From an uncultured Chitinophaga sp. (GTDB lineage Bacteria > Bacteroidota > Bacteroidia > UKL13-3): a DNA stretch of 59,455 nt. Position 1 is the stretch's first letter. Every line of letters begins with the position of its first letter. Made by a program: the position numbers and the translations under genes. This document shows positions 7,601 through 59,455 of this stretch, piece after piece. The notes beneath the pieces were generated by a model. It was given only the letters and a program-made list of their open reading frames with translations. It had not been told where the DNA came from and did not search any database. Location of the stretch: the NCBI GenBank assembly GCA_964443415.1, contig CAYUDC010000005.1:1-59455 (forward strand), in the 5' to 3' direction.

Positions 7601-9805
7601 TTAAAATCTTGCCGAAAGGGTCAAGAAAAAGTTAGTGCCTGCTGCTGGCAGGTACAAAGGAAACTGCCCTCTAGCACCCTGCGAATCGATGGTATTAAAT
7701 CCTCCTAAACTGCCAGAAGGGGCATATTTAGCATTTAACATATTGTTTAACTGAAAACTTATTTGCCATTCAGATTTTTCAAACTTATCAATCTTGTAAG
7801 AAGCCCTTAAATCTATAGTAGTAAACGCAGGTAAACTCAAGTTATCATTTCCTGTATTATCAAGAAATTGCTTTCCAACATACCTGCCATTCATGGCCAC
7901 ATTTACCTTGCTATCTAAACTCCTAAACTGAACCCCACCCATATGAAGGTGAGTTGGACTAAATGCCAATGGAACATCTTTATAGGTTTTGTTTACAGTT
8001 ATTGAAGCATCTTCAGCAGAAACAAATGTTTGGGTAAACTCCTTAGCCCCATTCATGCTTACATTTATATTCGCAAAAATCGAAAACATTTTATCAATGG
8101 GTAAAACCAGTTCAGATTCTAAACCCCTGCGCCAACTTCTACCGATATTTCCGGTAATAGGATATCCAAAATTATTTAAGGCCCCTGTTCCCACAATTTG
8201 ATTGGTAAACTCCATAAAATACAGGTTTACAAAAAACTTAAATCCATTTGCTGCTATCCTATATCCTAATTCTGTATTCCAAAGTTGCTCTGGCTTAATT
8301 TCGTTTTGCTTTACATCTCTAGGAGCAAAATCATCCTGAAGATAATCAAACCTGGTGGGTTCTCTAAATCCTAGGCCTGTAAAGGCATATAATTTTGAAA
8401 CAGCATTTAACTGATAATTAAAGCCCGTCCTTGGGTTTAAAAACAACCAAGACATGTTCTCTACCTTGCCAAAACTAGGTCTGATAGCCATTGCTTGATC
8501 CTGATAACCAAAGCTAGCATACCTTATTTGTAGATCTGTAAACAAACTCAACGATGAGCTAACAGCATAATTCATCTTAGAGAAGGCACTTAATTCTCTC
8601 TTCTTCCCTGTGTTTCTATACACCTCATGACCTGCAGAAATTCCACTCGGAAAAACTGTGGCACTAAGTGCCTCCATAAAATGATCGGCTTCAAAATAGT
8701 TTGCATGAATTCCACTGTTAAGCTCAAGCCTTTTGGTCTTTAATGTGTGCGTAACAAAGGCTCCATAAAATTTTTGATCTAGTCTATAAGAAGTCATCAT
8801 GTCACCAGCAAGATAACTTGTATCGTTTCCTTCAATAAATGGAGGCATGTTAAACCAATCATAAGAAAAGCCCCATGAAGCTGGAAACAAAAATTGAAAC
8901 TTTGGCGCTACGCCCCTTACAAAATAAGCGCTTGCCTGTAGGCTTTGGTTCAAACCGAAACTCCTAAAATATTGAACCTGATTAAACACTTGCCTAAAAG
9001 CGTCTGACTCGCCGTTAACAAAAGGATTTGATGTTGGATTATTGTCGAAGGTTTGCTTATCCACTCCCAAATATGAAAGCCTGTTTTGGGTAGCCCCACC
9101 AAAAGAGTTGAACCGAATAGCACCCTTTTTTAACAACCTAGTAACAGAAATCTGAAATGAATTTACTTCGGCTCGTGCATTATTCCTAAAGCCATTGGTG
9201 GTAATTCTACCAAACCTAAAACTACTTAACCATTTATTTTTTATTAAGCCACTTTGCAGGTTAATAGTCATTCGGTTTGAACCAAAAGAGCCCGCACCCA
9301 AGCTGATGGCAACAGATTTCTTCTGTTCTAATGCGGCCAAATTAATTTGAATAGAACCACCAAAGGCAGAGCTTCCATTGGTAGAAGTACCTAAACCTCT
9401 TTGAACCTGAATATCCTCTACTCCACTTAATAAATCGGCAAAATTCGCAAAAAACACCCCCTGATTTTCTGGGTCATTTACTGGTATTCCGTTAATAGTG
9501 GTATTAATTCGGGTTTGATCAATGCCACGCATTCTAAAAAAACTGTAACCAATGCCTGTTCCATTATCACTGTAGGCATTAATAGAGGGCAAATACTGCA
9601 GGGTAGAGGGCACATCAGCACCATAATAAAGCAATTTTAGTTGTTGCTTCTCGAGGGTACTAAAAGTAATCGGACGATTAAAAGATGGATTGATTTCTTT
9701 AATGACAAATTCTTGTAAACGTACTTGTTTAGAAGAAGTGTCTTGCTGTGCCCACGAAACGATAGGCAGCAGCATACTGGCTGATATATATATTATTTTT
9801 TTCAT
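7601..9805 (-). CDS. TonB-dependent outer-membrane receptor, probably for thiamine or a thiamine precursor (TPP-riboswitch controlled)
   Basis: Signal peptide MKKIIYISASMLLPIVSWAQQ. Plug-domain motifs (RMRGIDQTRINTTINGIPVND). The barrel ends in a terminal aromatic residue (...TLSARF). The start is moved to the ATG at 9805 because the supplied extension (9806-9949) covers the riboswitch. Confidence 0.9.
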   Translation of the reverse strand: MKKIIYISASMLLPIVSWAQQDTSSKQVRLQEFVIKEINPSFNRPITFSTLEKQQLKLLYYGADVPSTLQYLPSINAYSDNGTGIGYSFFRMRGIDQTRINTTINGIPVNDPENQGVFFANFADLLSGVEDIQVQRGLGTSTNGSSAFGGSIQINLAALEQKKSVAISLGAGSFGSNRMTINLQSGLIKNKWLSSFRFGRITTNGFRNNARAEVNSFQISVTRLLKKGAIRFNSFGGATQNRLSYLGVDKQTFDNNPTSNPFVNGESDAFRQVFNQVQYFRSFGLNQSLQASAYFVRGVAPKFQFLFPASWGFSYDWFNMPPFIEGNDTSYLAGDMMTSYRLDQKFYGAFVTHTLKTKRLELNSGIHANYFEADHFMEALSATVFPSGISAGHEVYRNTGKKRELSAFSKMNYAVSSSLSLFTDLQIRYASFGYQDQAMAIRPSFGKVENMSWLFLNPRTGFNYQLNAVSKLYAFTGLGFREPTRFDYLQDDFAPRDVKQNEIKPEQLWNTELGYRIAANGFKFFVNLYFMEFTNQIVGTGALNNFGYPITGNIGRSWRRGLESELVLPIDKMFSIFANINVSMNGAKEFTQTFVSAEDASITVNKTYKDVPLAFSPTHLHMGGVQFRSLDSKVNVAMNGRYVGKQFLDNTGNDNLSLPAFTTIDLRASYKIDKFEKSEWQISFQLNNMLNAKYAPSGSLGGFNTIDSQGARGQFPLYLPAAGTNFFLTLSARF
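8947..8959 (-). repeat. Exact copy of the over-represented 13-mer TTCGGTTTGAACC
   Basis: The plus strand reads ggttcaaaccgaa. Inside the TonB-dependent receptor gene, encoding FGLNQ. Confidence 0.95.
9271..9283 (+). repeat. Exact copy of TTCGGTTTGAACC
   Basis: Read directly from the sequence. Inside the TonB-dependent receptor gene, antisense to the coding strand (GSNR). Confidence 0.95.
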
Positions 9806-9893
9806 ACTTTTCCCTTTCGCAGGCATTATCCTGATCAGGTTCAGAGGGTTTATTCTCAGCCAACTTGTAAAGTTTGGCACCCCTAAAGACAGC
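9806..9893 (-). promoter_or_regulatory. TPP (thiamine pyrophosphate, THI-box) riboswitch
   Basis: The minus strand reads cuuuAGGGGUGCCaaacuuuacaaguuGGCUGAGAauaaACCCucuGAACCUGAUCAGGAUAAUGCCUGCGaaAGGGAaaag, then uAUG. All hallmark blocks are present: GGGGUGC, CUGAGA, ACCC and GAACCUGAUCnGGAUAAUGCCnGCG..AGGGA. CAGG/CCUG is a compensatory change from the usual CUGG/CCAG. Confidence 0.93.
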
Positions 9894-10013
9894 CACAAAA
9901 CAAAACCAAATTTTAAGTAACACCAAATTTTACCGCTAAATTTTACCAATTAAACTATTTTGTAAAATTCTTGTCTTAACTATACGCATCTTTGAACACC
10001 AATTTTATAAGCT

Positions 10014-13891: not shown

Positions 13892-15256
13892 TTAAGGTTT
13901 TAAGGCTTTTAGGTCAGATTCTTTTAAACTGTATCCCCATTTTACCAATCCTTTGGTATCATAGCAAGTAATCAAGAGGGTTCGTTCTCCTCTTTTGGGG
14001 CCAGTAATGTTAATGGTGCAATAATTATTCTCTGCCACCAAAGTTCCAGGCACTCTTTGAGGATTGTCCTTTTCTGGAGTACTAGCCGCATTAGAAGCGC
14101 CTGCCGTAATAGAGCTAGAGGTTAAATCATAAAGTGGATAACCAAGCGTTTGAGCCACCTTATCATTTTTTAGAAGTTCTGTATGATGTCTATCTCCACT
14201 TAAAAAAATGACTCCGGAAATTTTCTGATCGACAATAAATTTGATGATTTCCTCACGTTCCTTTTTGTAATAATTATAAGACTCCTTATCCGTATTTTCA
14301 TTAATAAACTGGCCGCCAATGGCTACAAACTTAAATGAAGCTTTACTATGCTTTAATTTGTTTTTCAACCAAGACAACTGTTGTTCACCCAACTGCGTTT
14401 TGTTATAAAATCTTTCATCTATATCAGATTCATCTCTAAAATAGCGGTCATCACAAAGGAAAAACTCCGCATCACTAAATCTAAAATTGCTATAAATGCC
14501 TTCACCGTTTTCGCCATATGCCTTGTTTCCCCAATAATCTTTAAACAATTGATAGGTTACGTCTTTAAACTCAAAGTGTTTATTGGCATCATTATCACCA
14601 AAATCATGGTCGTCCCAAATAGCATAATTATTTCTTTTTGCCAGTAAAGGTTGCAACTCTGGTAATGTCCTAGTATGACGATACCTATACTCAATACCGC
14701 TCTTGCTGCTATAATCTGCTTCTCTTAAATAAACATTGTCGCCCATCCATAGCATAAAATCTGCAGGGGTTTCGGTCATGCTTTTTAAAATAGCTGTTTG
14801 CTGTCCGTATGGCCTACCTGGCCTATCATAGGCCGAATCGTTAATGTACAAACACGAGCCTAGCATAAAAGTGAAATTAGGAGGAGATGTTCTCCACTCC
14901 CATAAAACCTTAGTAGTAATTTCGGTTGAATAAGGCAATGTTACTTTCTTTCCATCTAAATATATCGAGTATTCATAGGTACTGCCCATTTCTAGACCAG
15001 CTAATACAAATTTGCTAATCAATGGCAAACACAAGTCTTTATTCTTATTGGTTTCGGTTTGAACCAACGCTTGTTTAGCGCCTTTTTTCTGATATTGAAT
15101 TCCGATGGTTTTGGCGCATTGGGTTTGAACCCAAATCAAAGCCTCTGTATGCTCAGCATAGCCGTTCATCGGACCCGCAATTATCCTTGGCTCATTACTT
15201 TGAGCAAAAATTTGGATGGAAAAAATGAGCAATAAAAAAGCAAAATATTTTTTCAT
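13892..15256 (-). CDS. PhoD-like alkaline phosphatase / metallophosphoesterase, secreted
   Basis: Signal peptide MKKYFAFLLLIFSIQIFAQ from the ATG at 15256. Metallophosphatase motifs GDNVY, WDDHDFGDND and LSGDRHHTEL. Confidence 0.8.
   Translation of the reverse strand: MKKYFAFLLLIFSIQIFAQSNEPRIIAGPMNGYAEHTEALIWVQTQCAKTIGIQYQKKGAKQALVQTETNKNKDLCLPLISKFVLAGLEMGSTYEYSIYLDGKKVTLPYSTEITTKVLWEWRTSPPNFTFMLGSCLYINDSAYDRPGRPYGQQTAILKSMTETPADFMLWMGDNVYLREADYSSKSGIEYRYRHTRTLPELQPLLAKRNNYAIWDDHDFGDNDANKHFEFKDVTYQLFKDYWGNKAYGENGEGIYSNFRFSDAEFFLCDDRYFRDESDIDERFYNKTQLGEQQLSWLKNKLKHSKASFKFVAIGGQFINENTDKESYNYYKKEREEIIKFIVDQKISGVIFLSGDRHHTELLKNDKVAQTLGYPLYDLTSSSITAGASNAASTPEKDNPQRVPGTLVAENNYCTINITGPKRGERTLLITCYDTKGLVKWGYSLKESDLKALKP
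15053..15065 (+). repeat. Exact copy of TTCGGTTTGAACC
   Basis: Read directly from the sequence. Inside the PhoD-like gene (encodes LVQTE on the coding strand). Confidence 0.95.
15119..15131 (+). repeat. One-mismatch copy (TTGGGTTTGAACC)
   Basis: Read directly from the sequence. Inside the PhoD-like gene (WVQTQ). Confidence 0.9.
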
Positions 15257-15335: not shown

Positions 15336-15728
15336 ATGGAAAACAGCAAAATCTCAAGCTATCAATTAGACGACGCGGCAAAAGCCAAGTGGTATAGAAT
15401 TGTGTTCGATCTTAAAAAACAGTTCGGCAAAAAGCCCGATATGAACGGAATATTGTTTTTGATTGGGGTTCGGGAATTGGGTCAGGTAAGGGAATTTGCG
15501 AAACACGAGAAAATGGATTTAATGCACATTGCCACGTGTAAATTGCTAAGTTATGAGGGATATTATGCCTTTGAACACACCGATGAGGACGGTTGGCCTC
15601 ATTATCGAATGATCAATAAACCATCCTTTGCAGACCTTTTATCCCAAGAAAATCTACTTAAAAAACTCATAGTAACCTACTTCGAGGAGAACGGGCTGTT
15701 GGAGTCGGTTCAAACCGAAGCCCCATAA
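15336..15728 (+). CDS. Hypothetical cytoplasmic protein, 130 aa
   Basis: Clean ORF with an ATG start and coding-like composition. I recognise no motif. Its 3' end overlaps the convergent aminotransferase gene by 19 nt. Confidence 0.55.
   Translation: MENSKISSYQLDDAAKAKWYRIVFDLKKQFGKKPDMNGILFLIGVRELGQVREFAKHEKMDLMHIATCKLLSYEGYYAFEHTDEDGWPHYRMINKPSFADLLSQENLLKKLIVTYFEENGLLESVQTEAP
15707..15719 (-). repeat. Exact copy of TTCGGTTTGAACC
   Basis: The plus strand reads ggttcaaaccgaa. It lies in the 19-nt convergent overlap of ORF 15336-15728 and the aminotransferase gene, and the aminotransferase TGA stop is inside the motif. Confidence 0.95.
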
Positions 15729-18428: not shown

Positions 18429-19867
18429 AACATAACATTACTATCTAATTGATAGATATAAAAGCCCTGCCCTAACAAGTAGGGCTTTTTATTTTGCTCC
18501 TTTAAAACCTCAAGCAAATCGCTCTTCATTACAGTTACTCTTTCTTTGTTATCAAACCATATTAAAGTATTTCTTCGGTTTGATCCAAGCCTTGAAATAA
18601 ATGTACTTTCAGACTCGTTTTGAAAGGGTGTATACAAACACTGACTTTTTGTTAGCCACCAGACCAAATCGGGAAAATTACTGAGCAATTTCTCATCAAT
18701 AAAATTGCTTCTCTTCTGTAAAATATGAGAAAAATACAAGTGCGACAAATATTGATCTCGCGAAGCTTGATGATGCTTCTTTGCCCAATTGAAAACTAAA
18801 ACAATTTGACACAACAAGGTAGAAATTAACAAAATCTTGGAAATTTTGGCCCTACTAACCCTATTTTCTATGAAAAAAGCAGTAAAAACACCAAAAATTG
18901 GCCAGAAAAATGAAATATACCTTGGCAATTGCACCAAGGATAGACCAGGCTGCAAAAAAAGTAATGCAGTAGTGAAAATACTTAGGTTTAAACTTAGATT
19001 CAAGAACAAGCCAAGCTCCCTGGTTGGTTCAAATGGTTTAATGATAGAAAAAATGCCAAAAACACTTGATATCACAACAAAAATTAAAAATGCGACATTC
19101 AGTTTAAATTGTGGTGAAAGCAGGGCTACGATCCACGACTTAAAGTTTAAATAAATAGCCCCAACACTAAACTTTTCTGCTAAAGAGTGCTCTCCTAACA
19201 TTTGGCCATTTAACCAATAATTCGTTAATAACCATAATGTTGTAAACAACAAGGCGGGTAAAATGGCATAAATAAGTTTTGAAAGCTGGAGTTCCTTTCG
19301 GCCCAATAAGACATGAAATAAGAATCCAAGAAGCAAAAACCAGCCTATATACCTAGTTAGAACCAAAAAAGTTAGAACCAATGCCCATTTTAACCAGTTA
19401 TTTTTATCAAGTGTTACAGAGTAATACACCCAAGCCACAAATAATGGCACAAATAGCACTTCAGATAGGGCATTTGCCCAAACATGGGTCCAAGCAAAAC
19501 CAAACAGCATAGAAAGTAAAGTGGCCCCAATTTTACTTTTTAACCCGAGCACCCCAACAAGTTGGTAGACAAAAAATACCGTTAGGTTAAAAGAAATTCC
19601 TAAAACTACGCAGATATACACAGCTTCAGGAATATGAAATAAATATGCTGGAACTAAAATAATAGCAAAAAATGGTGGGGCGTTTTGTAGATAATTACCA
19701 TCAAACATTAGCAACCCATTGCCGCGATAAAAGTTATAGGCGGCCGAAAAGTAATTCATGGTATCTATCTGAAGGATAGGACCGAATTTTCCGATAAACC
19801 CAATAAGGAGGAGGTTTAAAAAAACAACTAAGGCAATAACTGGTGTGTGCTGCCTTAATAAATTCAT
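18422..19867 (-). CDS. Polytopic membrane protein, possible GT-C-fold (ArnT/PMT-like) glycosyltransferase
   Basis: 481 aa with about 11-12 hydrophobic helices. First loop IDTMNYFSAAYNFYRGNGL (acidic plus aromatic, as in GT-C enzymes). Soluble C-terminal region of about 110 aa. Its ATG overlaps the purQ stop (TAATG). Confidence 0.45.
   Translation of the reverse strand: MNLLRQHTPVIALVVFLNLLLIGFIGKFGPILQIDTMNYFSAAYNFYRGNGLLMFDGNYLQNAPPFFAIILVPAYLFHIPEAVYICVVLGISFNLTVFFVYQLVGVLGLKSKIGATLLSMLFGFAWTHVWANALSEVLFVPLFVAWVYYSVTLDKNNWLKWALVLTFLVLTRYIGWFLLLGFLFHVLLGRKELQLSKLIYAILPALLFTTLWLLTNYWLNGQMLGEHSLAEKFSVGAIYLNFKSWIVALLSPQFKLNVAFLIFVVISSVFGIFSIIKPFEPTRELGLFLNLSLNLSIFTTALLFLQPGLSLVQLPRYISFFWPIFGVFTAFFIENRVSRAKISKILLISTLLCQIVLVFNWAKKHHQASRDQYLSHLYFSHILQKRSNFIDEKLLSNFPDLVWWLTKSQCLYTPFQNESESTFISRLGSNRRNTLIWFDNKERVTVMKSDLLEVLKEQNKKPYLLGQGFYIYQLDSNVMFY
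18574..18586 (+). repeat. One-mismatch copy (TTCGGTTTGATCC)
   Basis: Read directly from the sequence. Inside the membrane-protein gene 18422-19867. Confidence 0.9.
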
Positions 19868-24177: not shown

Positions 24178-25980
24178 CTAAAACATCCTTGAGATTTCCT
24201 CTAAGGTTAATTTACTTACACAGGGCTTACCGTCTGGAGCAAACTGAGGATCTTTACATGCAAACAACTCATCCACCAAACGGTTCATTTCTTCGATTTT
24301 TAACTTTGTCCCCGACTTAATTGCTGCTCGTTTTGCTAAGGTTTTTGCCACGTGCTTGTTCTTATTGCTCTCTGGCGTAAGTGTATTTTTATACGTTTCT
24401 ATGATTTCAGAAATGAGGGTTATTTCGTTTTCTAGGTGCAATTCTGCTGGTAGTCCATTTATTACAAACGTACTTTTGCCAAACAAATTAATGGTAAAAC
24501 CTAGGGCCAACATCTCTGGTAGTATTTCTAATAAGATGGCTTCTTCTGCAGCATTTAAAGAGATTACCTTTGGAAAAAGTAACTGCTGACTCACAATCGG
24601 GCTCTTCTCAAGTGCGTCGAGGTATTTTTCAAATAAAATTCTTTCATGGGCCGCTTGTTGATGAATAATCATCATTCCACTCTTTATTGGAGTTACAATA
24701 AACTGGTTATTGAGTTGAAAAAACACCCTTGAATCATTTACCTCAGCACCAACTTTTAATTCGGTTTGAACCGATTCTCTTGCTGGTTTAGGAGGCGAAA
24801 AAGCCAATTCCCAATGTTGCTGACTGCGGTTTCGTTGTGCTTGATATTCCGATTTAAAACCATCCCAACCACCTCTATTATTCGAAACAGTTTCTACTTG
24901 CGAAGACCCCTTAAAATCTTGAATGCTAGGAGGATTAAGTTGTAGGTTCATAAATTGATTATCATCAAATCCTACTTCATCAGGCACTTGAATGTGGGAC
25001 GCTAATGCCCGCCTAACTACCGCACGAAGTATTTGATAAATGTTCTTTTCGTCCTCGAACTTTATTTCTGTCTTAGTTGGGTGAACATTGATATCTATTT
25101 TGGAGGGGTCGATGCTAATGAAAATGATATAGAACGGAAATTGTTCTTTTGCCAACATGCCTTCAAAAGCATTATTAACAGCATGGTTTAGATAATTATC
25201 TTTAAAAAAGCGGTTGTTTACAAAGAAAAACTGCTCCCCTCTAATTCTTTTAGCGGATTCTGGTCTACCTATAAAACCTTCTAGTTTGATAATGCTCGTT
25301 TGTTCTTCAAACCAAATTAAATCAGTATCTTTTTTATCAGTAAAAATCTCTTTTACCCTATCAATTAAATTCTGTGGGCCAAAATCAAATTGAACATCAT
25401 CATTGTGCAGAAGTTTAAAACCAACATGAGTATTTGCCAAGGCTGCTCTGGTAAACTCATCTAAAATATGTTTCCATTCAACCGGATTAGATTTTAAGAA
25501 GTTTCTGCGTGCAGGAATATTGTAGAATAGATTCTTTACAATCACCTGAGTGCCTTTGTTGAGGTTGATGTGTTCTTGCTTTAACACTTTAGACCCTTCA
25601 ATCTGAATGAGGGTTCCCAAATCATCTTGCTCTCTCTTGGTTTTCATTTCAACTTGTGCCACAGAGGCAATACTTGGCAGAGCTTCTCCTCTAAATCCCA
25701 TGGTTTGGATATGGTACAAGTCTTCAGTTTTAGAGATTTTTGAAGTAGCATGTCTTTCCCAGCAAGCGCGTGCATCAATAAATGACAAGCCTATGCCGTT
25801 GTCTACAATATGAATGAATGATTTTCCAGCATCCTTCACATACAAGTCTATCTGGGTGCTCGAGGCATCCAAAGCATTGTCAAGTAATTCTTTTACCACA
25901 GAAGACGGGCGTTGAACAACCTCTCCAGCGGCAATCTGACTTGCAACATGGTCTGGCAGCAAACGTATGGTATCACTCAT
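24178..25980 (-). CDS. mutL: DNA mismatch repair protein MutL
   Basis: From the ATG at 25980 the protein opens MSDTIRLLPDHVASQIAAGEVVQRPSSVVKELLDNALDA, followed by DNGIGL and GFRGEAL. The supplied start at 25992 is a TTG four codons upstream. Confidence 0.95.
   Translation of the reverse strand: MSDTIRLLPDHVASQIAAGEVVQRPSSVVKELLDNALDASSTQIDLYVKDAGKSFIHIVDNGIGLSFIDARACWERHATSKISKTEDLYHIQTMGFRGEALPSIASVAQVEMKTKREQDDLGTLIQIEGSKVLKQEHINLNKGTQVIVKNLFYNIPARRNFLKSNPVEWKHILDEFTRAALANTHVGFKLLHNDDVQFDFGPQNLIDRVKEIFTDKKDTDLIWFEEQTSIIKLEGFIGRPESAKRIRGEQFFFVNNRFFKDNYLNHAVNNAFEGMLAKEQFPFYIIFISIDPSKIDINVHPTKTEIKFEDEKNIYQILRAVVRRALASHIQVPDEVGFDDNQFMNLQLNPPSIQDFKGSSQVETVSNNRGGWDGFKSEYQAQRNRSQQHWELAFSPPKPARESVQTELKVGAEVNDSRVFFQLNNQFIVTPIKSGMMIIHQQAAHERILFEKYLDALEKSPIVSQQLLFPKVISLNAAEEAILLEILPEMLALGFTINLFGKSTFVINGLPAELHLENEITLISEIIETYKNTLTPESNKNKHVAKTLAKRAAIKSGTKLKIEEMNRLVDELFACKDPQFAPDGKPCVSKLTLEEISRMF
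24760..24772 (+). repeat. Exact copy of TTCGGTTTGAACC
   Basis: Read directly from the sequence. Inside mutL (ESVQTE on the coding strand). Confidence 0.95.
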
Positions 25981-33860: not shown

Positions 33861-33873
33861 TTCGGTTTGAACC
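33861..33873 (+). repeat. Exact copy of TTCGGTTTGAACC, intergenic
   Basis: Read directly from the sequence. In the divergent promoter region between the rluB-like gene and the DAACS transporter gene. Confidence 0.95.
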
Positions 33874-40077: not shown

Positions 40078-41940
40078 ATGTTTCAAAAATACGATGTTAT
40101 TGTAGTGGGTGCCGGCCATGCCGGATGTGAGGCAGCCGCGGCCTCAGCGAATCTTGGTTGTCAAACATTATTGATAACCATGGATATGACAAAAATTGCT
40201 CAAATGAGCTGTAACCCAGCCATGGGTGGGATTGCAAAGGGACAAATAGTAAGGGAAATAGATGCATTGGGCGGATATTCTGGTATTGTGAGTGACAAAT
40301 CAACCATACAATTCAGAATGTTAAATCGCTCTAAAGGGCCAGCCATGTTTAGCCCAAGGTCACAGAATGATAGAAGCCTATTTACTCTATACTGGCGAGA
40401 GTTGCTAGAGCAAACAAAGAATGTTGATTTTTGGCAAGATATGGTCTCTGAAATTATCATAGAGAACAACAAAGCAACTGGAGTAAAAACTAGCATGGGT
40501 CAAACGATTAAGGCCCATACAGTGATAATAACCAATGGAACATTCTTAAATGGTATCATACATATAGGTGAGAAACAATTTGGCGGGGGAAGGATTGGAG
40601 AAAAATCTGCAAAAGGAATTACTGAACAATTAGTTTCATTAGGGTTTGAAGCTGGTCGTATGAAAACGGGCACCCCTCCACGAATTGATGGGAGAAGCTT
40701 GGATTATTCAAAAATGGAAGTACAGGAAGGCGATATAAATCCAGAAAAGTTTTCTTACCTAAACAACACAAGAAGTCTTACCAAACAGTTAAACTGTTGG
40801 ATTACCTATACAAACAATTCGGTTCATGAAATCTTAAAAGAAGGTTTTGAAAAATCGCCCATGTACACAGGCAGGATCCAAGGACTCGGGCCAAGATACT
40901 GCCCTTCTATTGAAGATAAGATTAATCGTTTCGCAGAAAGAGAAAGGCATCAAATATTTGTAGAACCTGAGGGTTGGAATACGGTAGAAATATACGTTAA
41001 TGGATTTTCAACTTCATTGCCAGATGAAATACAAAATAAAGCTATTAAACTCATTCCTGGATTTGAAAAGGCTAAAATGTTTAGACCAGGATATGCTATT
41101 GAATACGATTACTTTCCTCCTACCCAATTGAAGCTAACGCTCGAGTCTAAACAAATTGATAATCTGTTTTTTGCGGGGCAGATAAATGGAACAACTGGTT
41201 ATGAAGAAGCTGCCTGTCAGGGCTTAATGGCAGGAATAAACGCTGCCCAAAAGGTAAAAGAGGCAGAGGAATTCATATTAACAAGGTCGGAAGCCTATAT
41301 TGGGGTACTTATCGATGATTTAGTAAATAAAGGCACAGATGAACCTTACAGAATGTTTACCTCACGGGCTGAATATCGATTAATGCTCAGACAAGATAAC
41401 GCAGATATAAGATTAACCAAAAAGTCATTTGACATTGGCTTAGCAGACATAAATAGACTAGAGGCAGTGGAAAGAAAAGAAAAAGAGACCAATGAGATTA
41501 TTCAATACTTTAAAAGAACTTCTGTTACTCCAGAACAAGTAAATCCAGTTCTAATCAAAAAAGAATCAAATCCAGTTCCACAGAATTACAAACTTTATCA
41601 AATATTAAGCAGACCTCAAATAGAGATAAATGATTTACTTCCTATTCTATCGGATCAAGCCGAAATTGTAAATTATTCAACAGAGAGTATTTTACAGGCA
41701 GAAGTGCTAATGAAATATGAAGGATATTTAGAAAAAGAAAAATTGCTAGTAGAAAAAATGAACAGGCTTGAAAACATAAAGATTAACAATGATTTTAATT
41801 ATCAAGAAGTAAAATCATTGTCATTGGAAGCAAGAGAGAAACTAATTAAACTTCAGCCTAAAACATTGGGTCAAGCAGCTAGAATAAGCGGCATATCACC
41901 AAGTGATGTTTCGATACTAATGGTACATTTAGGCAGATAA
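40078..41940 (+). CDS. mnmG: tRNA uridine 5-carboxymethylaminomethyl modification enzyme MnmG (GidA)
   Basis: 620 aa. YDVIVVGAGHAGCEAA, NPAMGGIAKG, GPRYCPSIEDK and FFAGQINGTTGYEEAA. Confidence 0.97.
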   Translation: MFQKYDVIVVGAGHAGCEAAAASANLGCQTLLITMDMTKIAQMSCNPAMGGIAKGQIVREIDALGGYSGIVSDKSTIQFRMLNRSKGPAMFSPRSQNDRSLFTLYWRELLEQTKNVDFWQDMVSEIIIENNKATGVKTSMGQTIKAHTVIITNGTFLNGIIHIGEKQFGGGRIGEKSAKGITEQLVSLGFEAGRMKTGTPPRIDGRSLDYSKMEVQEGDINPEKFSYLNNTRSLTKQLNCWITYTNNSVHEILKEGFEKSPMYTGRIQGLGPRYCPSIEDKINRFAERERHQIFVEPEGWNTVEIYVNGFSTSLPDEIQNKAIKLIPGFEKAKMFRPGYAIEYDYFPPTQLKLTLESKQIDNLFFAGQINGTTGYEEAACQGLMAGINAAQKVKEAEEFILTRSEAYIGVLIDDLVNKGTDEPYRMFTSRAEYRLMLRQDNADIRLTKKSFDIGLADINRLEAVERKEKETNEIIQYFKRTSVTPEQVNPVLIKKESNPVPQNYKLYQILSRPQIEINDLLPILSDQAEIVNYSTESILQAEVLMKYEGYLEKEKLLVEKMNRLENIKINNDFNYQEVKSLSLEAREKLIKLQPKTLGQAARISGISPSDVSILMVHLGR

Positions 41941-42849: not shown

Positions 42850-42861
42850 AATAGAATTTGA

Positions 42862-44876: not shown

Positions 44877-44884
44877 TACCTTTG
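44877..44884 (+). promoter_or_regulatory. -7 promoter box (TACCTTTG) for pheS
   Basis: Exact TAnnTTTG match 18 nt upstream of the ATG at 44903. Confidence 0.45.
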
Positions 44885-44902
44885 AAGAAACAAAATCGCT
44901 GA

Positions 44903-45919: not shown

Positions 45920-45930
45920 AAGAAAATAAA

Positions 45931-48092: not shown

Positions 48093-48896
48093 TTATAGGT
48101 AAGTAGACATTTCGAGTTGTAACTTTTGAGCCTCCGAAGCCGCTTTACCGGCAAAATCTAAACCGTCTGAGGCATATATAATGCTTCTAGAAGCGTTGAT
48201 TAATAATCCTACATTTTGGGTCAAACCAAATTTAACTACGTCTTTCAAAGAGCCGCCTTGGGCGCCTACGCCCGGCACTAATAAAAAATGTGAAGGAGCA
48301 TACTTTCTAATGATCGAAAATTCTTCTGGTTTAGTAGCCCCAACCACAAACATTAAATTTTCTTTTGATCCTATTTTACAAGTATTCTCAACGACTACTT
48401 CGAAAAGGAATTTTTCTCCAACCTTTTGTTGTTCGTAGTCTTTACTACCAGGATTGGAGGTTAAGGCCAAGACAATTCCCCATTTGCCCTCGTATTTAAA
48501 AAAGGGTTCAAGAGAGTCATTGCCCATGTAGGGTGCTAAGGTAACAGCATCGGCATTGAGTGTTTTAAAAAACGCTTTGGCATATTGGTCGCTGGTGTTG
48601 CCAATATCGCCTCGTTTGGCATCTGCAATTTTAAAACAGTTTGTGGGGATATAATCCAGTGTTTTTTGCATAGACTCCCAGCCAGCAGCACCATTGGCCT
48701 CAAAAAATGCAGTATTAATTTTATAGGAAACGCAGTAAGGCTCAGTGGCGTCGATAATGGCTTTATTAAATGCAAAAATTGGATCAGGTTCTGAAAGCAG
48801 ATGCTTTGGAATTTTGGTAATGTCTGTATCTAGGCCAACGCAAAGAAAAGATTGCTTGCGATTTATTTCTGCAACAAGGTTGTCGTGGGTAAACAT
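48093..48896 (-). CDS. pyrF: Orotidine 5'-phosphate decarboxylase (type 2)
   Basis: 267 aa. FLCVGLDTD, KIADAKRGDIGNT and VPGVGAQGG. Confidence 0.93.
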   Translation of the reverse strand: MFTHDNLVAEINRKQSFLCVGLDTDITKIPKHLLSEPDPIFAFNKAIIDATEPYCVSYKINTAFFEANGAAGWESMQKTLDYIPTNCFKIADAKRGDIGNTSDQYAKAFFKTLNADAVTLAPYMGNDSLEPFFKYEGKWGIVLALTSNPGSKDYEQQKVGEKFLFEVVVENTCKIGSKENLMFVVGATKPEEFSIIRKYAPSHFLLVPGVGAQGGSLKDVVKFGLTQNVGLLINASRSIIYASDGLDFAGKAASEAQKLQLEMSTYL

Positions 48897-50468: not shown

Positions 50469-52865
50469 TTAGAATTTAAAATTATAAGTAATTGAAGGCA
50501 CTATGGTAAAAAGGTACCATTTGTAAATGATAGGCACGCCAGTATCTAGATCGCTATCATAACTTAAGGTGTAGGCATTTTTTCTGCCATATAGATTGTA
50601 GATAGAGAAAACCCAATCACTTTCGTTCTTATAAACCTTGCCAGGAACCTTTTTTCTGCCAAGGGTTAGAGAGATGTCTGCCCTATGGTAATTAGGGAAT
50701 CTTGCATTGTTTCGAGCGCCGTAAAAGATGGATGGTTGTTCATTTCCAAAAATGGCATAACGCTGACTGGCCTGGGTAAATGCTTCACCGGTGGCATAAA
50801 TAAAATTTCCAGAAACGCTCACACGTTCGCTGATTTTTTGGTTAAGCACAAAGGTAAAATAATGTGTTCTGTCGAATCTAAAATCGTACCATTCGCCATT
50901 ATTGATATTATCAGCCCTTCTTTCAGATTTTGCGATAGTATACCCAATCCAACCAGTTGTGTTGCCGCCTTGTTTTCTTGCAAACAACTCTAATCCATAG
51001 GCACGGCCTTCGCCAGCAACTACTTGAGCTTCTATGGCTTCATTAAATTGAATGTCTGCGCCTTCTCTTAACTCAACCGTGTTTCTGAGGTTTTTGTAAT
51101 AAGTTTCAGCGGAGAATTCGAGTTTATTATCTAAAAAGTTTCTAAAATATCCTAAAGCAAATTGATCTGCCATTTGAGGCTTAATATAGTTATCGCTAGG
51201 CGTCCAGAATTCTTGTCCAATGCTGGCAGTAATATTCTGAATCAGGTGCATATACTGATACATGCGGTTATAGGAACCTTTAACAGAGCTCTTATCGTTG
51301 AGCATGTAGGTGAAATTTAGTCTTGGTTCGAACCCAACGAACGTATTGTAAATTTCGTTTGAGGCATAGTTAGTATAAGGGTTTGCGGCATCTTTAGCGC
51401 TCTCTTTAATTTGACCATTTTCTACAAAAGTAGGTGAGCCGCCCACATAATTGATAGACCTACCACTGCCTATATTAGAAAAAATTGATAATCTGGCACC
51501 ATAATCTAGAGAAATTCTAGCCCCAATTTTGGTGGCATGCGAGGCATATAAGTCTTGCTCGATGGCCTTTTTTACGGGTAATGATTGTGGGTCTACGATA
51601 GACGCCGCTTTAATGGGATCTATTTTACCAGGTAGAAATTCATATCTATTGGCTTTAACGCCAAACTTTATGCTGTTTTTATTATTTAAAAAGTAGCTTC
51701 CATCTACCTTTAGGTTAATATCATCAATATAATTTGTTCTTCTAAAATTTAGATTTTCGCTAATGTTAATATCAAAATTGTAGTTGTATCTAGAGTAAAC
51801 AAGGCTGGTGTTTACAAAGAGTTTGCTATTAAAAATATGGTTCCATCTAAGTGTACCTGTATAATTTCCCCAGCCAAAACCAAAGGCGCCACCAAAGGCA
51901 AGATCGTCTCTACCAAAATAGCCACTTAGGTAAAGTTTGTCTTTGTCACTTAGCTCGTAGTTGAGTTTGATGTTTAGGTCGCCAAAATAGGCCGTTACTT
52001 GCGATAGCTGATCGGATAGAGGAAAGAACAGGTCGAAATAGCTCCTTCTTCCGCTAATTAGGAAAGAGGATTTATCTTTTACGATAGGGGCCTCTAGGGT
52101 TAATCTTGAGGATAAAATCCCGATACCACCGCTTGCTCCAAATTTCTTTGAATTTCCATCTTTCATGTGTACATCTAAAACAGAAGCTAATCGGCCACCA
52201 TATTGGGCAGGAATTCCCCCTTTATAGAGTTCGAAATCTTTAATGGCATCACCATTAAAGGTAGAGAAAAAACCAAGCACATGAGAGGGATTGTATACCA
52301 CAGCTTCATCCAATTGCACCAGGTTATGGTCTATGTTTCCACCGCGTACAATAAAGTTAGTAGACCCATCGCCAGCAGCTTGAACTCCTGGCAAAAGCTG
52401 AATGGCTTTAATAATATCAACCTCTCCAAGTAAAATAGGTATTTTCTTCACTTGTTTTACATCAATCTTAACCACACTCATTTTATTTTGAGTGACATTG
52501 CTGTTAGAAATTTTATCGGAGGTAACCACCAGCTCTTTGAGGGCTTTTTTTGATTCATTAAGCTCTACGTTGAGTTTAATGTTTTGGTTTAGGAGTACTT
52601 CTTTAATAATTGGTTCATACCCCACATAACTTATTTCTAATTTATAAGTACCAGGAGGAAGGCTTAACGAATAAAAGCCATAGGCATTAGTGGTTGCGCC
52701 GGTTTTTAGGTCTGGAACCGCTACAGAGGCGCCAATAAGTTCTTCTCCATTTTTAGCATCGGTGATATTTCCGCTAATGGTAAAGTTTTTGGTTTGACCC
52801 AACACAGGGTTTGAGCAAAGAAGGGCCAAGGCCAAGGCCAGGCTTAAAATTGATTTTTGTAGCAT
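50469..52865 (-). CDS. TonB-dependent receptor with a carboxypeptidase-regulatory-like N-terminal domain
   Basis: 798 aa with a signal peptide. CarbopepD_reg-like segment FTISGNITDAKNGEELIGASVAV. Plug segment NFIVRGGNIDHNLVQLDEAVVYNP. Terminal ...ITYNFKF. Confidence 0.88.
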   Translation of the reverse strand: MLQKSILSLALALALLCSNPVLGQTKNFTISGNITDAKNGEELIGASVAVPDLKTGATTNAYGFYSLSLPPGTYKLEISYVGYEPIIKEVLLNQNIKLNVELNESKKALKELVVTSDKISNSNVTQNKMSVVKIDVKQVKKIPILLGEVDIIKAIQLLPGVQAAGDGSTNFIVRGGNIDHNLVQLDEAVVYNPSHVLGFFSTFNGDAIKDFELYKGGIPAQYGGRLASVLDVHMKDGNSKKFGASGGIGILSSRLTLEAPIVKDKSSFLISGRRSYFDLFFPLSDQLSQVTAYFGDLNIKLNYELSDKDKLYLSGYFGRDDLAFGGAFGFGWGNYTGTLRWNHIFNSKLFVNTSLVYSRYNYNFDINISENLNFRRTNYIDDINLKVDGSYFLNNKNSIKFGVKANRYEFLPGKIDPIKAASIVDPQSLPVKKAIEQDLYASHATKIGARISLDYGARLSIFSNIGSGRSINYVGGSPTFVENGQIKESAKDAANPYTNYASNEIYNTFVGFEPRLNFTYMLNDKSSVKGSYNRMYQYMHLIQNITASIGQEFWTPSDNYIKPQMADQFALGYFRNFLDNKLEFSAETYYKNLRNTVELREGADIQFNEAIEAQVVAGEGRAYGLELFARKQGGNTTGWIGYTIAKSERRADNINNGEWYDFRFDRTHYFTFVLNQKISERVSVSGNFIYATGEAFTQASQRYAIFGNEQPSIFYGARNNARFPNYHRADISLTLGRKKVPGKVYKNESDWVFSIYNLYGRKNAYTLSYDSDLDTGVPIIYKWYLFTIVPSITYNFKF

Positions 52866-52891: not shown

Positions 52892-52980
52892 AGTTGGCCC
52901 ATACAATAACCAAGACTAAAGCGACAAAGTTTGCTTTGAGGGTGTTAAGTGGTTATTTTTAGTAGATAAAGGGGTTTGGA

Positions 52981-54675
52981 TCAAACCGACACATTTAGAT
53001 TTGAGGCCTTTCTACTGAAGCTAAAATAGATGATTAAACCAACCGCTAGCCAAATACTAAACCCAATCCAATTGCTTAATCCCAGTTCTGTCATTAGGTA
53101 GAAATTACTGCACAATCCCAGCACCGGAATAAGAGAATAGTTTCTTGTAAAGCTTAAAAAACTCACGATGGTACTGATGGCCAAAAAACCAAAAACTGGG
53201 ATGTTGTGCCACCATTCGTGAAGCGTAAAGAGCTTTTGAAAAAAGCCAGGGTTAAGCACAATGGTGATGGTTAATCCTGTAATGTAAATAATCGGTACCC
53301 AATATTTACCATTGATATATGGCACTCTAAAGCCGGTGTGAAATTCGCTTTTATGACTTTCCATGACAATGACGGCGGCATTTACCAGTACAAAAGCAAA
53401 AAGGGTTCCGATGCTCGAAAGGTCTGTAACCTCTTTAAGGTTCATAAATAGAGCGGGTATGGCCACCATAAAACCAGTGACAATGGTAGCAAACCAAGGT
53501 GTTTTATACTTTGGGTGAATGGCCGAGAATTTTTTAGGAAGAAGGCCATCTCTACTCATGGTCATCCAAATTCTTGGTTGGCCGTTTTGAAACACCAATA
53601 ACACACTGGCCATTGCAATTACGGCACTTACCGCTACAATTCCCTGCATCCATGGGAGGTTAACTTTCTCGAACACAAATGCTAATGGGTCGCCTACACC
53701 AAGCTCGGTATAATTTACCATTCCGGTTAATACTAAGGCAATCAGGATATACAAAACGGTACAAATAATGAGGGAGGCGATCATGCTTTTGGGCAGATCT
53801 TTTCTGGGGTCTTTACATTCTTCGGCAGTAGTGGCTAGGGCGTCGAAACCAACATAGGCGAAGAAAACCGAAGAAACCCCCTTTAAAACCCCTGTGAGGC
53901 CGTTGGGCGCAAAAGGGCTCCAATTTTCTGGGTTAACATAGAATGCTCCCACAACAATCACCATGAGCACAACGATTATTTTTAATCCCACCATGATATT
54001 ACTGGCATTTTTGGTCTCTTTTACGCCTCTAAAAATTAGCCAGGTGATGGCCACAACGATGGCAAGAGCGGGTAAATCTAAAATGATTTTAAAACCTCCT
54101 ATTTCTGGTGCTTGGGTCCAAGCATTAAAGGCTTCTTGTAAAGTTGCGCTAAGGGTTTGGTTGGCTTCTAACATCTTGATGGCTTCTTGATGTCCATTGG
54201 ATGCGCTTAAATAATCCATGCTAAAATAGGTTGGGATGTTAATTCCCAATCCAGAGAGGAGCCCTGTAAAGTAATCGCTCCAACTGATGGCCACTACAAT
54301 ATTTCCGATGGCATATTCTACAATAAGTGCCCAACCAATTATCCAAGCAATTAACTCTCCAAATGCGGCATAGGCATAAGTGTAGGCAGAACCACTAATT
54401 GGAATAACAGAGGCAAATTCTGCATAGCACAATGCCGAGAAGCCACAAGCGATGGCGGTAAAAATAAATAAAGTGATAACGGCTGGCCCGCCATTAAAGC
54501 TGGCATTACCGATGGTAGAAAATATACCAGCGCCAATAATGGCAGCTATGCCCATGGCAGTAAGGTCTTTAAAGCCTAGTGTTTTATGCAGCGCGCCTTC
54601 TGTTTCTGAGAGAGCAGCATGGTCGCGCTGTATATCTGCGATAGTTTTTTTTCTGAAAAGAGACTTTAGGTTCAC
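52981..54675 (-). CDS. APC-superfamily amino acid permease (cationic amino acid transporter-like)
   Basis: 564 aa with a GTG start and about 14 TM helices. The N-terminal LTAMGIAAIIGAGIFSTIG motif is typical of APC/CAT permeases. Confidence 0.85.
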   Translation of the reverse strand: MNLKSLFRKKTIADIQRDHAALSETEGALHKTLGFKDLTAMGIAAIIGAGIFSTIGNASFNGGPAVITLFIFTAIACGFSALCYAEFASVIPISGSAYTYAYAAFGELIAWIIGWALIVEYAIGNIVVAISWSDYFTGLLSGLGINIPTYFSMDYLSASNGHQEAIKMLEANQTLSATLQEAFNAWTQAPEIGGFKIILDLPALAIVVAITWLIFRGVKETKNASNIMVGLKIIVVLMVIVVGAFYVNPENWSPFAPNGLTGVLKGVSSVFFAYVGFDALATTAEECKDPRKDLPKSMIASLIICTVLYILIALVLTGMVNYTELGVGDPLAFVFEKVNLPWMQGIVAVSAVIAMASVLLVFQNGQPRIWMTMSRDGLLPKKFSAIHPKYKTPWFATIVTGFMVAIPALFMNLKEVTDLSSIGTLFAFVLVNAAVIVMESHKSEFHTGFRVPYINGKYWVPIIYITGLTITIVLNPGFFQKLFTLHEWWHNIPVFGFLAISTIVSFLSFTRNYSLIPVLGLCSNFYLMTELGLSNWIGFSIWLAVGLIIYFSFSRKASNLNVSV

Positions 54676-57495: not shown

Positions 57496-59223
57496 TTAAG
57501 GATTTGAAGGACTTATTTGAATTTTTATGTCTTTTAATGAATCATTTGGTGGCAAATGGTAGACTACCAAGTAGCAAATGGCAGCGTTTAGTTTTTTGGT
57601 GGGTTTTGGTTTGAACCAATAATCGCCTGTTTGAAACTTTCCGGGTTTACCATTACAAAACTGTAAAAGCTGCTTTTGTTCCCAGAATAATTTTTCTTGT
57701 GTTAATGTATCAATGGCAAATAAGGCTATTTGACCCTGATATTCGTGAGGGAAATGGTGGTTAAGTGAAATACGGTACTCTGCGCCATTTTCTAGCGCTT
57801 TAAATTTAAAGCCAGCCAATTTAAGAATAGTATCTGAAGGAACGCCCTTGCTATAGTAAGAAATGGTTTGATGTGGTTGAAAACTATTTGATGTGGCTTC
57901 CCCCTTTTTTTCTTTCCAAACCCAACCCATGTAAGGGTTTGAAGTACGCAAGAACACACGCCAATACTTTTCTTTATTCATTTGGTCCCAATGAAGAATA
58001 TAATGCTGGTACTGCCAGGTTTGAATTAGATTTACAGTGATAGTGATAAGAAGCACTATTGAAAAAGCTAGTTTCTGTGGAAACTTAGGCTTTTGAGTAA
58101 ATAATTTGATTGGCAGGATTAATATAGGCAAATATTCTAGGTATACCCTTTGCCCATACGAACTGCCATAAAACCAGCACCACCAGCTGCTAAATACATA
58201 GGTAATGAAGGTAAAATAAAAAAGGAAGTAGGCCTTGAAAAAAGTGTTTTTTGTTGGGTTTAAGAAAACAGTGGTACCTATTAAAATAGCTAGAATTGGA
58301 CAGTACACAAAAAGCCCCTTTTGGTAACTAAAAAGGATATTTAATAATTGAGGATTAAGAAAATCGAATGTTTCATGTTGGTAGCTATAAACATAGATAT
58401 ATCCTGTTTGTAAATACCATAGGCACATTTGCAGCATAATTGGAGCCAAGAATAAAAAAACGGCGATGGTGAATGGTTTGGCATTTGTTTTTATAAAATC
58501 AATTACTCTAAATAAGCCTTGTAAATCTATTATCAGTGGCAAAGCCAAGCAAACTAAAAAATTAACAGGTCTAAGTATCGTAATTAGTCCCAATGCAAGA
58601 CCTGCCAACCAAAGGTGTTTTATGTAAAGGTGTTTAGTGAATAGTTTGATATTAAGCAAAAACAATGAAATCAATGCAAAAGAAAACACATGACTATAGC
58701 TGGCGTCGAACCAGGCATAATTTGTAAATGGGGTGGAAAACAGAATAGAAATTTGAGCACAGACTATATAGAAATCTCTTACGCGGTATTGACATAGAAT
58801 TTTTCGAACAGCGATTAGCCCAACGAATAAACACAACAAAGCACCAACTAACACCATTACTTGGTATGGAAATTCATATCCTGTGTCTGAAAACCCTAAG
58901 ACGCTCCTGCACAAGTGAAGCGGCAAGAATAAAGGAAGTAATATTGTGGCAGTACCGCAGTAATATTTATTAACCAATCCATTTCTATAGGCTTTATAAT
59001 AAGGCTTGTCATTCAAGGCTGGATAAAAAATGGTGGTGGTATCAGAGATTGTTTGATGTCTTACAAGATCCTTTCTAATAAAAACAGATGGAAGATAATC
59101 ATAATATCCTTCGCCATCTGAGTGGATATAATCTAATCGCTGATTGAAATTTAACAGCATTACACAGGTAAACACAAAGAGTAGCAATACTTCTCTTAAA
59201 GCATGGTTTCCGATAGGTTTCAT
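57496..59223 (-). CDS. Polytopic membrane protein, possible GT-C-fold glycosyltransferase, with a C-terminal soluble domain
   Basis: 575 aa with at least 11 hydrophobic helices. The first loop HSDGEGYYDYLPS is acidic and aromatic, as in ArnT/PMT-type enzymes. Soluble C-terminal region of about 170 aa. Confidence 0.4.
   Translation of the reverse strand: MKPIGNHALREVLLLFVFTCVMLLNFNQRLDYIHSDGEGYYDYLPSVFIRKDLVRHQTISDTTTIFYPALNDKPYYKAYRNGLVNKYYCGTATILLPLFLPLHLCRSVLGFSDTGYEFPYQVMVLVGALLCLFVGLIAVRKILCQYRVRDFYIVCAQISILFSTPFTNYAWFDASYSHVFSFALISLFLLNIKLFTKHLYIKHLWLAGLALGLITILRPVNFLVCLALPLIIDLQGLFRVIDFIKTNAKPFTIAVFLFLAPIMLQMCLWYLQTGYIYVYSYQHETFDFLNPQLLNILFSYQKGLFVYCPILAILIGTTVFLNPTKNTFFKAYFLFYFTFITYVFSSWWCWFYGSSYGQRVYLEYLPILILPIKLFTQKPKFPQKLAFSIVLLITITVNLIQTWQYQHYILHWDQMNKEKYWRVFLRTSNPYMGWVWKEKKGEATSNSFQPHQTISYYSKGVPSDTILKLAGFKFKALENGAEYRISLNHHFPHEYQGQIALFAIDTLTQEKLFWEQKQLLQFCNGKPGKFQTGDYWFKPKPTKKLNAAICYLVVYHLPPNDSLKDIKIQISPSNP
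57605..57617 (+). repeat. One-mismatch copy (TTTGGTTTGAACC)
   Basis: Read directly from the sequence. Inside the membrane-protein gene 57496-59223 (WFKP on the coding strand). Confidence 0.9.
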
Positions 59224-59348
59224 TGCAGGCTGGCTATAGGTTTAGGTTAACGCAAAATTATTTGTTTGCTTATTAAAATATACAAACAAATAATAATGTG
59301 AGAAAAAGCCTTCAGGCTACTTTTAATACATTCTTATCTTTGTTGTAA

Positions 59349-59455
59349 GTGATAAATCGAATTCAACATATTTTCTTCGGCTTCCTATTTCCTTTAGCAT
59401 TGTTGGGTCAAACCGATACTAACGCCGTTAAACCTGTGCTAGCACCAAAGCAAAC
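59349..59455 (+). CDS. 5' end of a secreted-protein gene (continues beyond the window)
   Basis: GTG at 59349 follows an in-frame TAA. It encodes (M)INRIQHIFFGFLFPLALLGQTDTN, a signal-peptide-like N-terminus. A TATCTTTG -7 box at 59335-59342 sits just upstream. Confidence 0.35.
   Translation, partial: MINRIQHIFFGFLFPLALLGQTDTNAVKPVLAPKQ

Follow-up and report, generated by a model that had tools for sequence, protein, structure and literature searches.

To our knowledge, sequence-selective DNA uptake is firmly established in just two proteobacterial families. The signals involved, the DNA uptake sequence (DUS) of Neisseriaceae (AT-GCCGTCTGAA and its dialects) and the uptake signal sequence (USS) of Pasteurellaceae (AAGTGCGGT and ACAAGCGGT types), are the closest known systems to the element described here, and we are not aware that the USS receptor has been identified as yet. 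The element is a partly palindromic word, (T)TTCGGTTTGAACCRA, scattered along 59,455 nt of DNA from an uncultured member of the Bacteroidota (GenBank assembly GCA_964443415.1, contig CAYUDC010000005.1, positions 1 to 59,455; hereafter the window). Over chance the word is ~100-fold enriched, inside unrelated genes. Like DUS and USS, it is short, occurs on both strands and mostly within unrelated genes, shows a frame bias and falls in tolerant protein segments; it is better conserved than its flanks although species gain and lose copies, has lineage variants and enriched one-mismatch neighbours, and is not enriched in unrelated taxa or phage contigs. Unlike them, it belongs to the phylum Bacteroidota and is partly palindromic, and one of its variants carries a 1-nt change in spacer length. 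What we report is an iterated word, similar to uptake sequences or to HIP, that has new sequence features and comes from a phylum new to such words. As a working explanation, a tentative one drawn by analogy, we favour a DNA-level self tag, most likely recognised in natural transformation as an analogue of DUS/USS, possibly with a role in processing or recombination like that of HIP1.

By sequence comparison, the organism is assigned to an uncultured Bacteroidota lineage near Sphingobacteriales. In a one-genome-per-species GTDB set, the closest CarB (90% identity) came from a metagenome-assembled genome (MAG) labelled 'Bacteroidia bacterium', followed by MAGs from freshwater lakes (86%) and then by Pedobacter and Mucilaginibacter (78%). 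A search of metagenome contigs with the aminotransferase gave a top match of 70%, and the relatives found with serine hydroxymethyltransferase (SHMT) include 'Bacteroidetes bacterium UKL13-3', presumably a member of the NS11-12g freshwater group. No record was found of proteins identical to MutL or to the product of the last ORF. An ENA contig of the same species (L282), reached via RadC, terminates 9.5 kb leftward of the window, so that 69 kb of the species were covered. The contigs of graded relatives, ~150 kb in total, were retrieved with PhoD homologues as handles; their PhoD identity is 95% for L285, 84% for L286, L287 and L304, 76% for L288 and L289, 70% for L290, 67% for L291 and L292, and 65% for L202.

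The exact 13-mer TTCGGTTTGAACC occurs six times in the window and never in 100 dinucleotide-preserving shuffles, and at up to two mismatches we counted 19 copies where 1.27 were expected. The 10-nt core GGTTTGAACC is present 10 times, against 0.14 expected from the dinucleotide shuffles, 0.27 from Markov-3 and 0.77 from Markov-5 simulations. It is the most frequent 10-mer of the window, outranking A/T-rich words, and the top 12- to 14-mers are sub-words of the motif. A preliminary description of this DNA had already located the six exact copies, a core-only match (36029) and two weaker minus-strand copies (52978 and 59405), and all of these were recovered (Table 1). Its four one-mismatch copies (15119, 18574, 27206 on the minus strand and 57605) are likewise present, but a fifth, at 34575 on the minus strand, had been overlooked; moreover, its assumption of ~38% GC was too high for a window measured at 36.3%. 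The lack of obvious strand polarity that it noted holds at up to two mismatches, with 10 copies on the plus and nine on the minus strand. The over-representation of this short and specific word, as known for DUS and USS, extends over the 69 kb of the species, with ~25 sites, no tapering seen and about one core per 6 kb, and over the ~150 kb from relatives.

We defined the anatomy of the word by aligning 25 copies of the same species, 19 from the window and six from the 9.5 kb to its left. Information is limited to positions 0 to 15, while the flanks lie at background, with an information content of ~0; positions 14 (R) and 15 (A) are conserved although they were outside the site selection. This makes (T)TTCGGTTTGAACCRA, with its 15-16 nt, the whole unit, and since its flanks carry no information it is not a fragment of a longer repeat, in line with the earlier view that it derives neither from a miniature inverted-repeat transposable element (MITE) nor from a longer repeat. 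Many copies of one short sequence might still be left by mobile elements (a MITE, a REP element or a transposon end) or arise as an artefact of assembly or library construction. We give this practically no weight, since copies lie inside intact open reading frames (ORFs) that show no indels against their orthologues and the same sites recur in independent ENA, JGI, Logan and NCBI assemblies. Contigs of the same species are available from ENA (ERZ4209337) and from Logan assemblies of SRR12487002 and SRR12487024. An in-frame insertion of 15 nt was rejected because no 5-codon indels were seen relative to orthologues, and inverted repeats of invertible segments were rejected because close pairs are no commoner than random spacing predicts.

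The enrichment resides in the DNA and not in the encoded proteins. By Pfam annotation, the host genes are as unrelated in function as first described: they comprise carB, two TonB-dependent receptors, a PhoD-like phosphatase, an aminotransferase, mutL, a GH3/beta-lactamase fusion, a pseudouridine synthase, a dicarboxylate symporter, an M16 peptidase, mnmG, pyrF, an amino-acid permease and hypothetical proteins. When synonymous codons were shuffled within genes, which preserves each protein sequence and the codon usage of each gene, most copies were lost and only ~10-25% survived. In the ORFs, 8 cores were observed against 1.7 expected, 9 copies at up to one mismatch against 0.7, and 15 at up to two mismatches against 4.0. 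Together with the conservation of the motif above its flanks described below, this upholds the proposal that selection acts on DNA rather than on a peptide, and a peptide motif was rejected. Enrichment at the DNA level, independent of the protein and in both orientations within many unrelated genes, is what DUS and USS display.

The copies use all six reading frames and both orientations, as had been claimed of frames and orientations in general, although unevenly: about half of the genic copies stand in the frame G-GTT-CAA-ACC-GAA (VQTE), which dominates. Such unevenness is to be expected of a word that settles at places where proteins can bear its translation. Within the window, the TGA-containing sense frame is used at gene ends only. 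At 15710-15712 and 52981-52983, TCG-GTT-TGA supplies the last codons and the stop, both proteins ending in ...SV*, and the aminotransferase case is conserved in L285 and L286. Copies favour poorly conserved protein segments and gene ends; where orthologues can be aligned, the PhoD copies fall in a variable N-terminal stretch and the mutL copy in a variable linker. About 11% of the copies are intergenic, near the intergenic share of the DNA, and the copy at 33861..33873 lies in a 146-bp gap between divergent genes, in line with the one intergenic copy mentioned previously.

These data also bear on the idea that the transcript or the peptide is what is selected, be it a small RNA hairpin or T-arm-like element, GGUUCAAACC, in mRNAs or a favoured (L/W)VQTE peptide. 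Some features agree with it: in ~70% of the genic copies the mRNA reads GGTTCAAACCGAA, about half of them stand in the VQT(E) frame, and GUUCAAACC resembles the T-loop consensus GUUCNANNC. However, copies are found in either orientation and in all six frames, some are intergenic or span stop codons, and the host proteins are unrelated. The antisense:sense ratio of ~16:7, in our tally over the listed copies of the window's species, does not differ from the 3:2 expected, since TGA closes one sense frame and leaves three antisense and two sense frames free of stops. The hairpin formed by the single strand is a weak one (-1.3 to -4 kcal/mol; z-scores of -2.3 at best), Rfam holds no family that matches the word, and the loop has 6 nt where the T-loop has 7. 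We therefore consider this explanation largely refuted by the codon shuffle and the spread over frames and orientations, and it seems to us very improbable. Altogether, readings based on RNA, peptide, mobile element or artefact are effectively excluded. On the same grounds, a stable hairpin or terminator, a known RNA family and a mimic of the tRNA T-arm were each rejected. The -7 box of Bacteroidota promoters, TAnnTTTG, was discarded as well, as the word reads TCGGTTTG and its copies are intragenic.

Confinement to the window, which would have spoken against the reading of the preliminary description, was not seen. The 9.5 kb of L282 outside the window hold one exact, one one-mismatch and four two-mismatch copies, and sister lineages carry copies too, including in other genes: enrichment was seen in every sampled lineage with a PhoD identity of 95-65%. 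GGTNTGAACC occurs once per 2-8 kb in the lineage, against 10 times in 2.58 Mb of loci from other Bacteroidota, and overall, ~2.5 Mb of DNA from other Bacteroidota contain the word ~50-100 times less often than the lineage does. The core GGTTTGAACC was found twice in 1.04 Mb of metagenome loci. In L304, 10 kb beyond SHMT with genes absent from the window contain seven copies at up to two mismatches where ~0.2 are expected from the chance rate of the window; SHMT lies there ~4 kb from PhoD, so that this is not an unlinked region. In IMG/VR viral contigs, the 15-/16-mers occur at about our chance estimate, one per contig; one such contig (L300), with three weak matches, proved to be giant-virus-like, with RCC1 and Kelch repeats, and was set aside as unrelated. 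As for DUS and USS, the word is restricted to one lineage, with variants in relatives. Our literature searches found no description of the word as a motif and no uptake sequence reported for Bacteroidota, in agreement with the earlier statement that no such motif had been described for this phylum.

A multiple alignment of the syntenic blocks allowed us to follow individual sites. The window and its 95% and 84% relatives have four sites in common (the aminotransferase stop, the two PhoD sites and one in the hypothetical gene at 18.5 kb), while others are specific to a lineage, such as the mutL copy of the window, another one in the mutL of L288 and one additional exact copy in L286. Compared with the window, the motif columns are 92% identical in L285 and 94% in L286, against 80% and 64%, respectively, for the 30 nt on either side. 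The motif is thus conserved beyond its host genes in these two sister lineages, a comparison that the preliminary description had proposed. In the more distant L288 and L202, the sites of the window are conserved no better than their flanks. Judged from these alignments, the word appears to be maintained above the neutral level at short distances and to turn over at longer ones. As a separate observation, the window and L282 differ at 12 positions in 11 kb, of which 11 fall in two clusters of ~100 bp (8071-8182 and 10296-10381) that look like short recombination tracts.

The form of the word itself changes between relatives. In L202 the dominant form is CGGTCTGAACC(AA), found at four of six sites (7429, 11701, 12258 and 19427), and the sites specific to this lineage are of the CGGTCTGAACC type, whereas those specific to the related L291 are GGTTTGAACC; at one orthologous site, L291 has GGTTTGAACC where L202 and L290 have GGTCTGAACC. 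The genome closest by CarB (L002) has no GGTNTGAACC but six copies of GGTTGAACC in 22.8 kb, where a background of 2.8 Mb holds 24; GGTTGAACC has the same arms and similar flanks (TTYY...MA), and its spacer is shorter by one base. Within the lineage, enrichment also extends to the one-step neighbours GGTTCGAACC and GGTTSAACC, as is expected at a balance between mutation and drive. CGGTCTGAACC has the 7-mer GTCTGAA in common with the neisserial DUS GCCGTCTGAA, which is probably a coincidence.

How could such a word accumulate? If it is a self tag for transformation, a surface or periplasmic competence receptor would bind word-bearing double-stranded DNA better than other DNA, and word-bearing fragments would be taken up and recombined more often. 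By molecular drive, mutations that create a word would then spread and those that destroy one would be replaced. The word would build up where proteins tolerate it, that is, in variable linkers, signal peptides, C-terminal ends (with TGA as the stop) and intergenic DNA, and the reading frame giving the innocuous VQTE would be favoured. A drift of receptor specificity in a daughter lineage would lead to new copies in the new version, and variants such as CGGTCTGAACC and GGTTGAACC may have arisen in this way. Among Bacteroidota, natural competence is known from Riemerella, whose machinery is unusual; R. columbina shows a preference for its own DNA, although just A-rich k-mers and no uptake sequence were found there (PMC7965970, PMC8459023). 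In a cyanobacterium, the palindromic HIP1 is reported to raise transformation in a methylation-dependent manner (preprint, bioRxiv 10.1101/2024.09.10.611283). The more specific proposal, that we are dealing with the first DNA-uptake (self-recognition) system in Bacteroidota, built on a partly palindromic 15-mer with co-evolving variants, including one of altered spacer length, across an uncultured freshwater family, is somewhat more doubtful still than a self tag as such.

Several observations weigh against uptake. Neither comEC, dprA and comF nor pilus/secretin genes were found in the window or in the fetched loci. The density of the word is lower than that of DUS or USS, by a factor of 5-6, and no terminator-like inverted pairs, a trait of neisserial DUS, were seen among its copies. 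Dyad symmetry, even if partial, is foreign to DUS and USS and would better fit dimeric DNA-binding proteins or methyltransferase sites. The exact copies of the species (n = 7) all lie left of 34 kb, and nearly all of the lineage sequence comes from one syntenic, apparently origin-proximal neighbourhood. At the sole clearly unlinked locus (L293, around the methionyl-tRNA synthetase (MetRS) gene on a 1.22 Mb contig), enrichment is modest and several of the words sit in 321-bp gene-internal repeats. These repeats belong to giant genes for cadherin-like and SprB-type adhesins (1-8490 and 12207-22121 of L293), and each of them bears CTCGGTCTGAACCAAA and/or ACTGTTTGAACCAAC, so that copies of the word can also be multiplied by the expansion of intragenic repeats.

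The symmetry of the word deserves closer attention in this respect. The preliminary description had seen an inverted repeat around a central TG, and we do find a partial dyad, TTYGGTT-TG-AACCRAA; some copies, those at 15119 and at 7497 of L282, are perfect 16-mer palindromes. Nevertheless, the commonest form is asymmetric, TTCGGTT-TG-AACCAA, with C in the left arm, A in the right arm and TG in the centre, and the CGGTCTGAACC variant breaks the dyad further. Near-palindromes of 13-16 bp, often intragenic and in some cases arrayed in clusters at the origin, are known from parS/ParB, NBS/Noc, SBS/SlmA, matS/MatP and ram/RacA. Several features make it probable that the window contains or adjoins the replication origin: the GC skew changes sign at ~34-36 kb, mnmG is present, two parS-like 16-mers stand in inverted orientation (TATTTCACGTGGAACA and its reverse complement, at 39142-39157 and 40053-40068) flanking the region upstream of mnmG, and three DnaA-box-like 9-mers cluster at 44520-44599, in an AT-rich gap upstream of pheS.

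This location keeps a regional array of binding sites in play. The word could be bound by a dimeric protein that organises or segregates the chromosome, such as a ParB/Noc-like paralogue, a condensin-loading factor or a nucleoid protein, acting in an origin-proximal domain and co-evolving with its sites. The near-palindrome of 15-16 bp with its perfect 16-mers, the uneven distribution of the exact copies and the origin-proximal provenance of nearly all lineage data agree with such an array, and intragenic parS clusters of ~20 sites near oriC exist in Streptomyces and Myxococcus. On the other hand, separate sites resembling canonical parS are already present in the window, and ~25 sites in 69 kb without tapering exceed the known parS, NBS, matS and SBS arrays. 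Arrays of the parS/NBS type have 10-100 highly conserved sites per genome, while the word is denser and changes quickly between close relatives; this rapid change, and the mixtures of one-step variants within a genome, would be unusual for architectural sites. Furthermore, enrichment continues past the synteny breaks of L304, L291 and L289 and, weakly, at the unlinked MetRS locus, and the asymmetry of the commonest form, increased in CGGTCTGAACC, speaks against such an array as well. We regard a binding-site array as a serious, if rather unlikely, alternative to an uptake tag.

The abundance and the centre of the word point to a further possibility, namely an intracellular site like HIP1 or Chi. 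It would be either the target of an orphan methyltransferase or repair enzyme, or a recombination-hotspot or anti-degradation signal for a nuclease of the AddAB/RecBCD type, and its build-up would result from biased repair or from selection that favours recombinational repair. Like HIP1 of cyanobacteria (GCGATCGC), the word is abundant, intragenic and partly dyad-symmetric, has lineage variants and spreads by point substitutions, and HIP1 has been linked to transformation efficiency. In the lineage loci, the central TG/CA outnumbers the palindromic CG by 38 to 7, as the deamination of methylated CpG would give. However, HIP1 is far denser, forms a perfect palindrome of 8 bp and has a known cognate methyltransferase, whereas the word has 15 nt and is asymmetric. 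No DNA methyltransferase, Vsr or restriction gene was found in the window, where the methyltransferase-domain genes are of the small-molecule type. Very-short-patch repair and similar biases yield enrichments below 2-fold, not above 100-fold.

As for Chi, KOPS and SRS, the word shares with them a Chi-like density, over-representation in core genes and species specificity. Its density of about one per 3-6 kb resembles that of Chi in E. coli, and, for a putative origin at ~34 kb, 14 of the 19 copies have GGTTCAAACCGAA on the leading strand, a bias that is not significant. This bias disappears for copies at up to one mismatch (8:5) and is confounded with gene orientation. Known Chi sites have 5-8 nt and are non-palindromic, and we know of no Chi of 13-15 nt. 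With its 15 nt and a replication polarity that is not significant, the word departs from the short (5-8 nt), strongly polar signals of the Chi/KOPS kind. HIP1 may itself act in a Chi-like and methylation-dependent manner (bioRxiv 10.1101/2024.09.10.611283). To an intracellular site of the HIP1 or Chi type we give a low, though not negligible, probability.

Should this be the first DNA-uptake system of the phylum, sequence-selective natural transformation would be widespread in these bacteria, and natural transformation would be indicated in abundant uncultured freshwater Bacteroidota. The receptor would be of a new kind, perhaps dimeric and unrelated to the neisserial pilin ComP. A third independent case of uptake specificity, in another phylum, would bear on the long-standing questions of how such specificity evolves (molecular drive versus selected 'sex') and of its receptors, and the graded variant words among close relatives would provide a natural experiment in which shifts of the word could be matched with those of a candidate receptor. 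If the word instead organises the chromosome or acts like HIP1, it would still be an undescribed genomic signature that defines a lineage. The word may also be used for binning and for tracing the DNA of this lineage in metagenomes.

Table 1. Copies of the word in the window, with their departure from the exact 13-mer, position, strand and context.
Copy	Position	Strand	Context
Degenerate (2 mismatches), TTTGGCTTGAACC	4362..4374	+	Antisense in carB; may be a chance occurrence (~1.3 copies at up to 2 mismatches expected)
Exact	8947..8959	-	Sense in TonB-dependent receptor, reading FGLNQ
Exact	9271..9283	+	Antisense in the same TonB-dependent receptor as 8947, reading GSNR
Exact	15053..15065	+	Antisense in PhoD-like gene, LVQTE, variable segment; kept in L285, L286 and L304
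One mismatch, TTGGGTTTGAACC(CAA), perfect 16-nt palindrome	15119..15131	+	PhoD-like gene, conserved WVQT; present in L285, L286 and L288
Exact	15707..15719	-	Internal TGA is the stop of a class-III aminotransferase (...GASV*); kept in L285, one mismatch in L286
One mismatch, TTCGGTTTGATCC	18574..18586	+	Hypothetical protein (18422-19867); orthologous site exact in L286
Exact	24760..24772	+	Antisense in variable linker of mutL, SVQTE; missing at the aligned position in L288 and L202
One mismatch, ATCGGTTTGAACC(GA)	27206..27218	-	Antisense in GH3/beta-lactamase fusion gene
Degenerate, TTTGGTTTAAACC, central TA variant	33348..33360	+	Pseudouridine synthase gene
Exact	33861..33873	+	Intergenic
One mismatch, TTCGTTTTGAACC	34575..34587	-	Sodium:dicarboxylate (SDF) symporter gene
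Core only, GGTTTGAACC	36029..36038	+	M16 peptidase gene
Degenerate (2 mismatches), TTCGGCTTGATCC	41652..41664	-	mnmG; possibly a chance occurrence
Degenerate, TTTGGTTTGACCC	48218..48230	-	pyrF
Degenerate, TTGGGTTCGAACC, central CG, perfectly palindromic core	51325..51337	-	TonB-dependent receptor-like gene
Degenerate, TTTGGTTTGACCC	52788..52800	+	Same TonB-dependent receptor-like gene as 51325
Degenerate, GTCGGTTTGATCC	52978..52990	-	TGA is the stop of an amino-acid permease (...NVSV*)
One mismatch, TTTGGTTTGAACC(AA)	57605..57617	+	Hypothetical protein (57496-59223)
Degenerate, ATCGGTTTGACCC	59405..59417	-	Right edge of the window

Two repeats of another kind were noticed in relatives. A distant relative (L205, 9610-10030) has a tandem array with a 42-bp spacing, one gap being 84 bp, and a GAACWWGTTC palindrome in each unit, which is unrelated to the word. 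In a related MAG (L004), a longer GC-rich repeat with GCGGGACTCCCACACCAC occurs 4-5 times in 22.8 kb and may be REP- or MITE-like.

Some neighbours of the copies are also worth recording. A TPP riboswitch (Rfam RF00059, 72 bits; 9794-9894 on the minus strand) lies directly upstream of the TonB-dependent receptor gene with two exact copies, and the receptor is probably thiamine-related. The true start of this gene lies downstream of the mechanical ORF start at 9949, and L282 annotates it with 741 aa. The stretch from 42000 to 46000, with pheS and the genes for a methyltransferase-domain protein and a Big_5/DUF2141 protein, has a low GC content (29.5-33%) and contains no copy of the word, which is anecdotal. 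Finally, a gene with Schlafen/AlbA_2 and HTH domains at 21195-21824 on the minus strand, which encodes a putative DNA-binding protein, has kept its position in L285 to L288.

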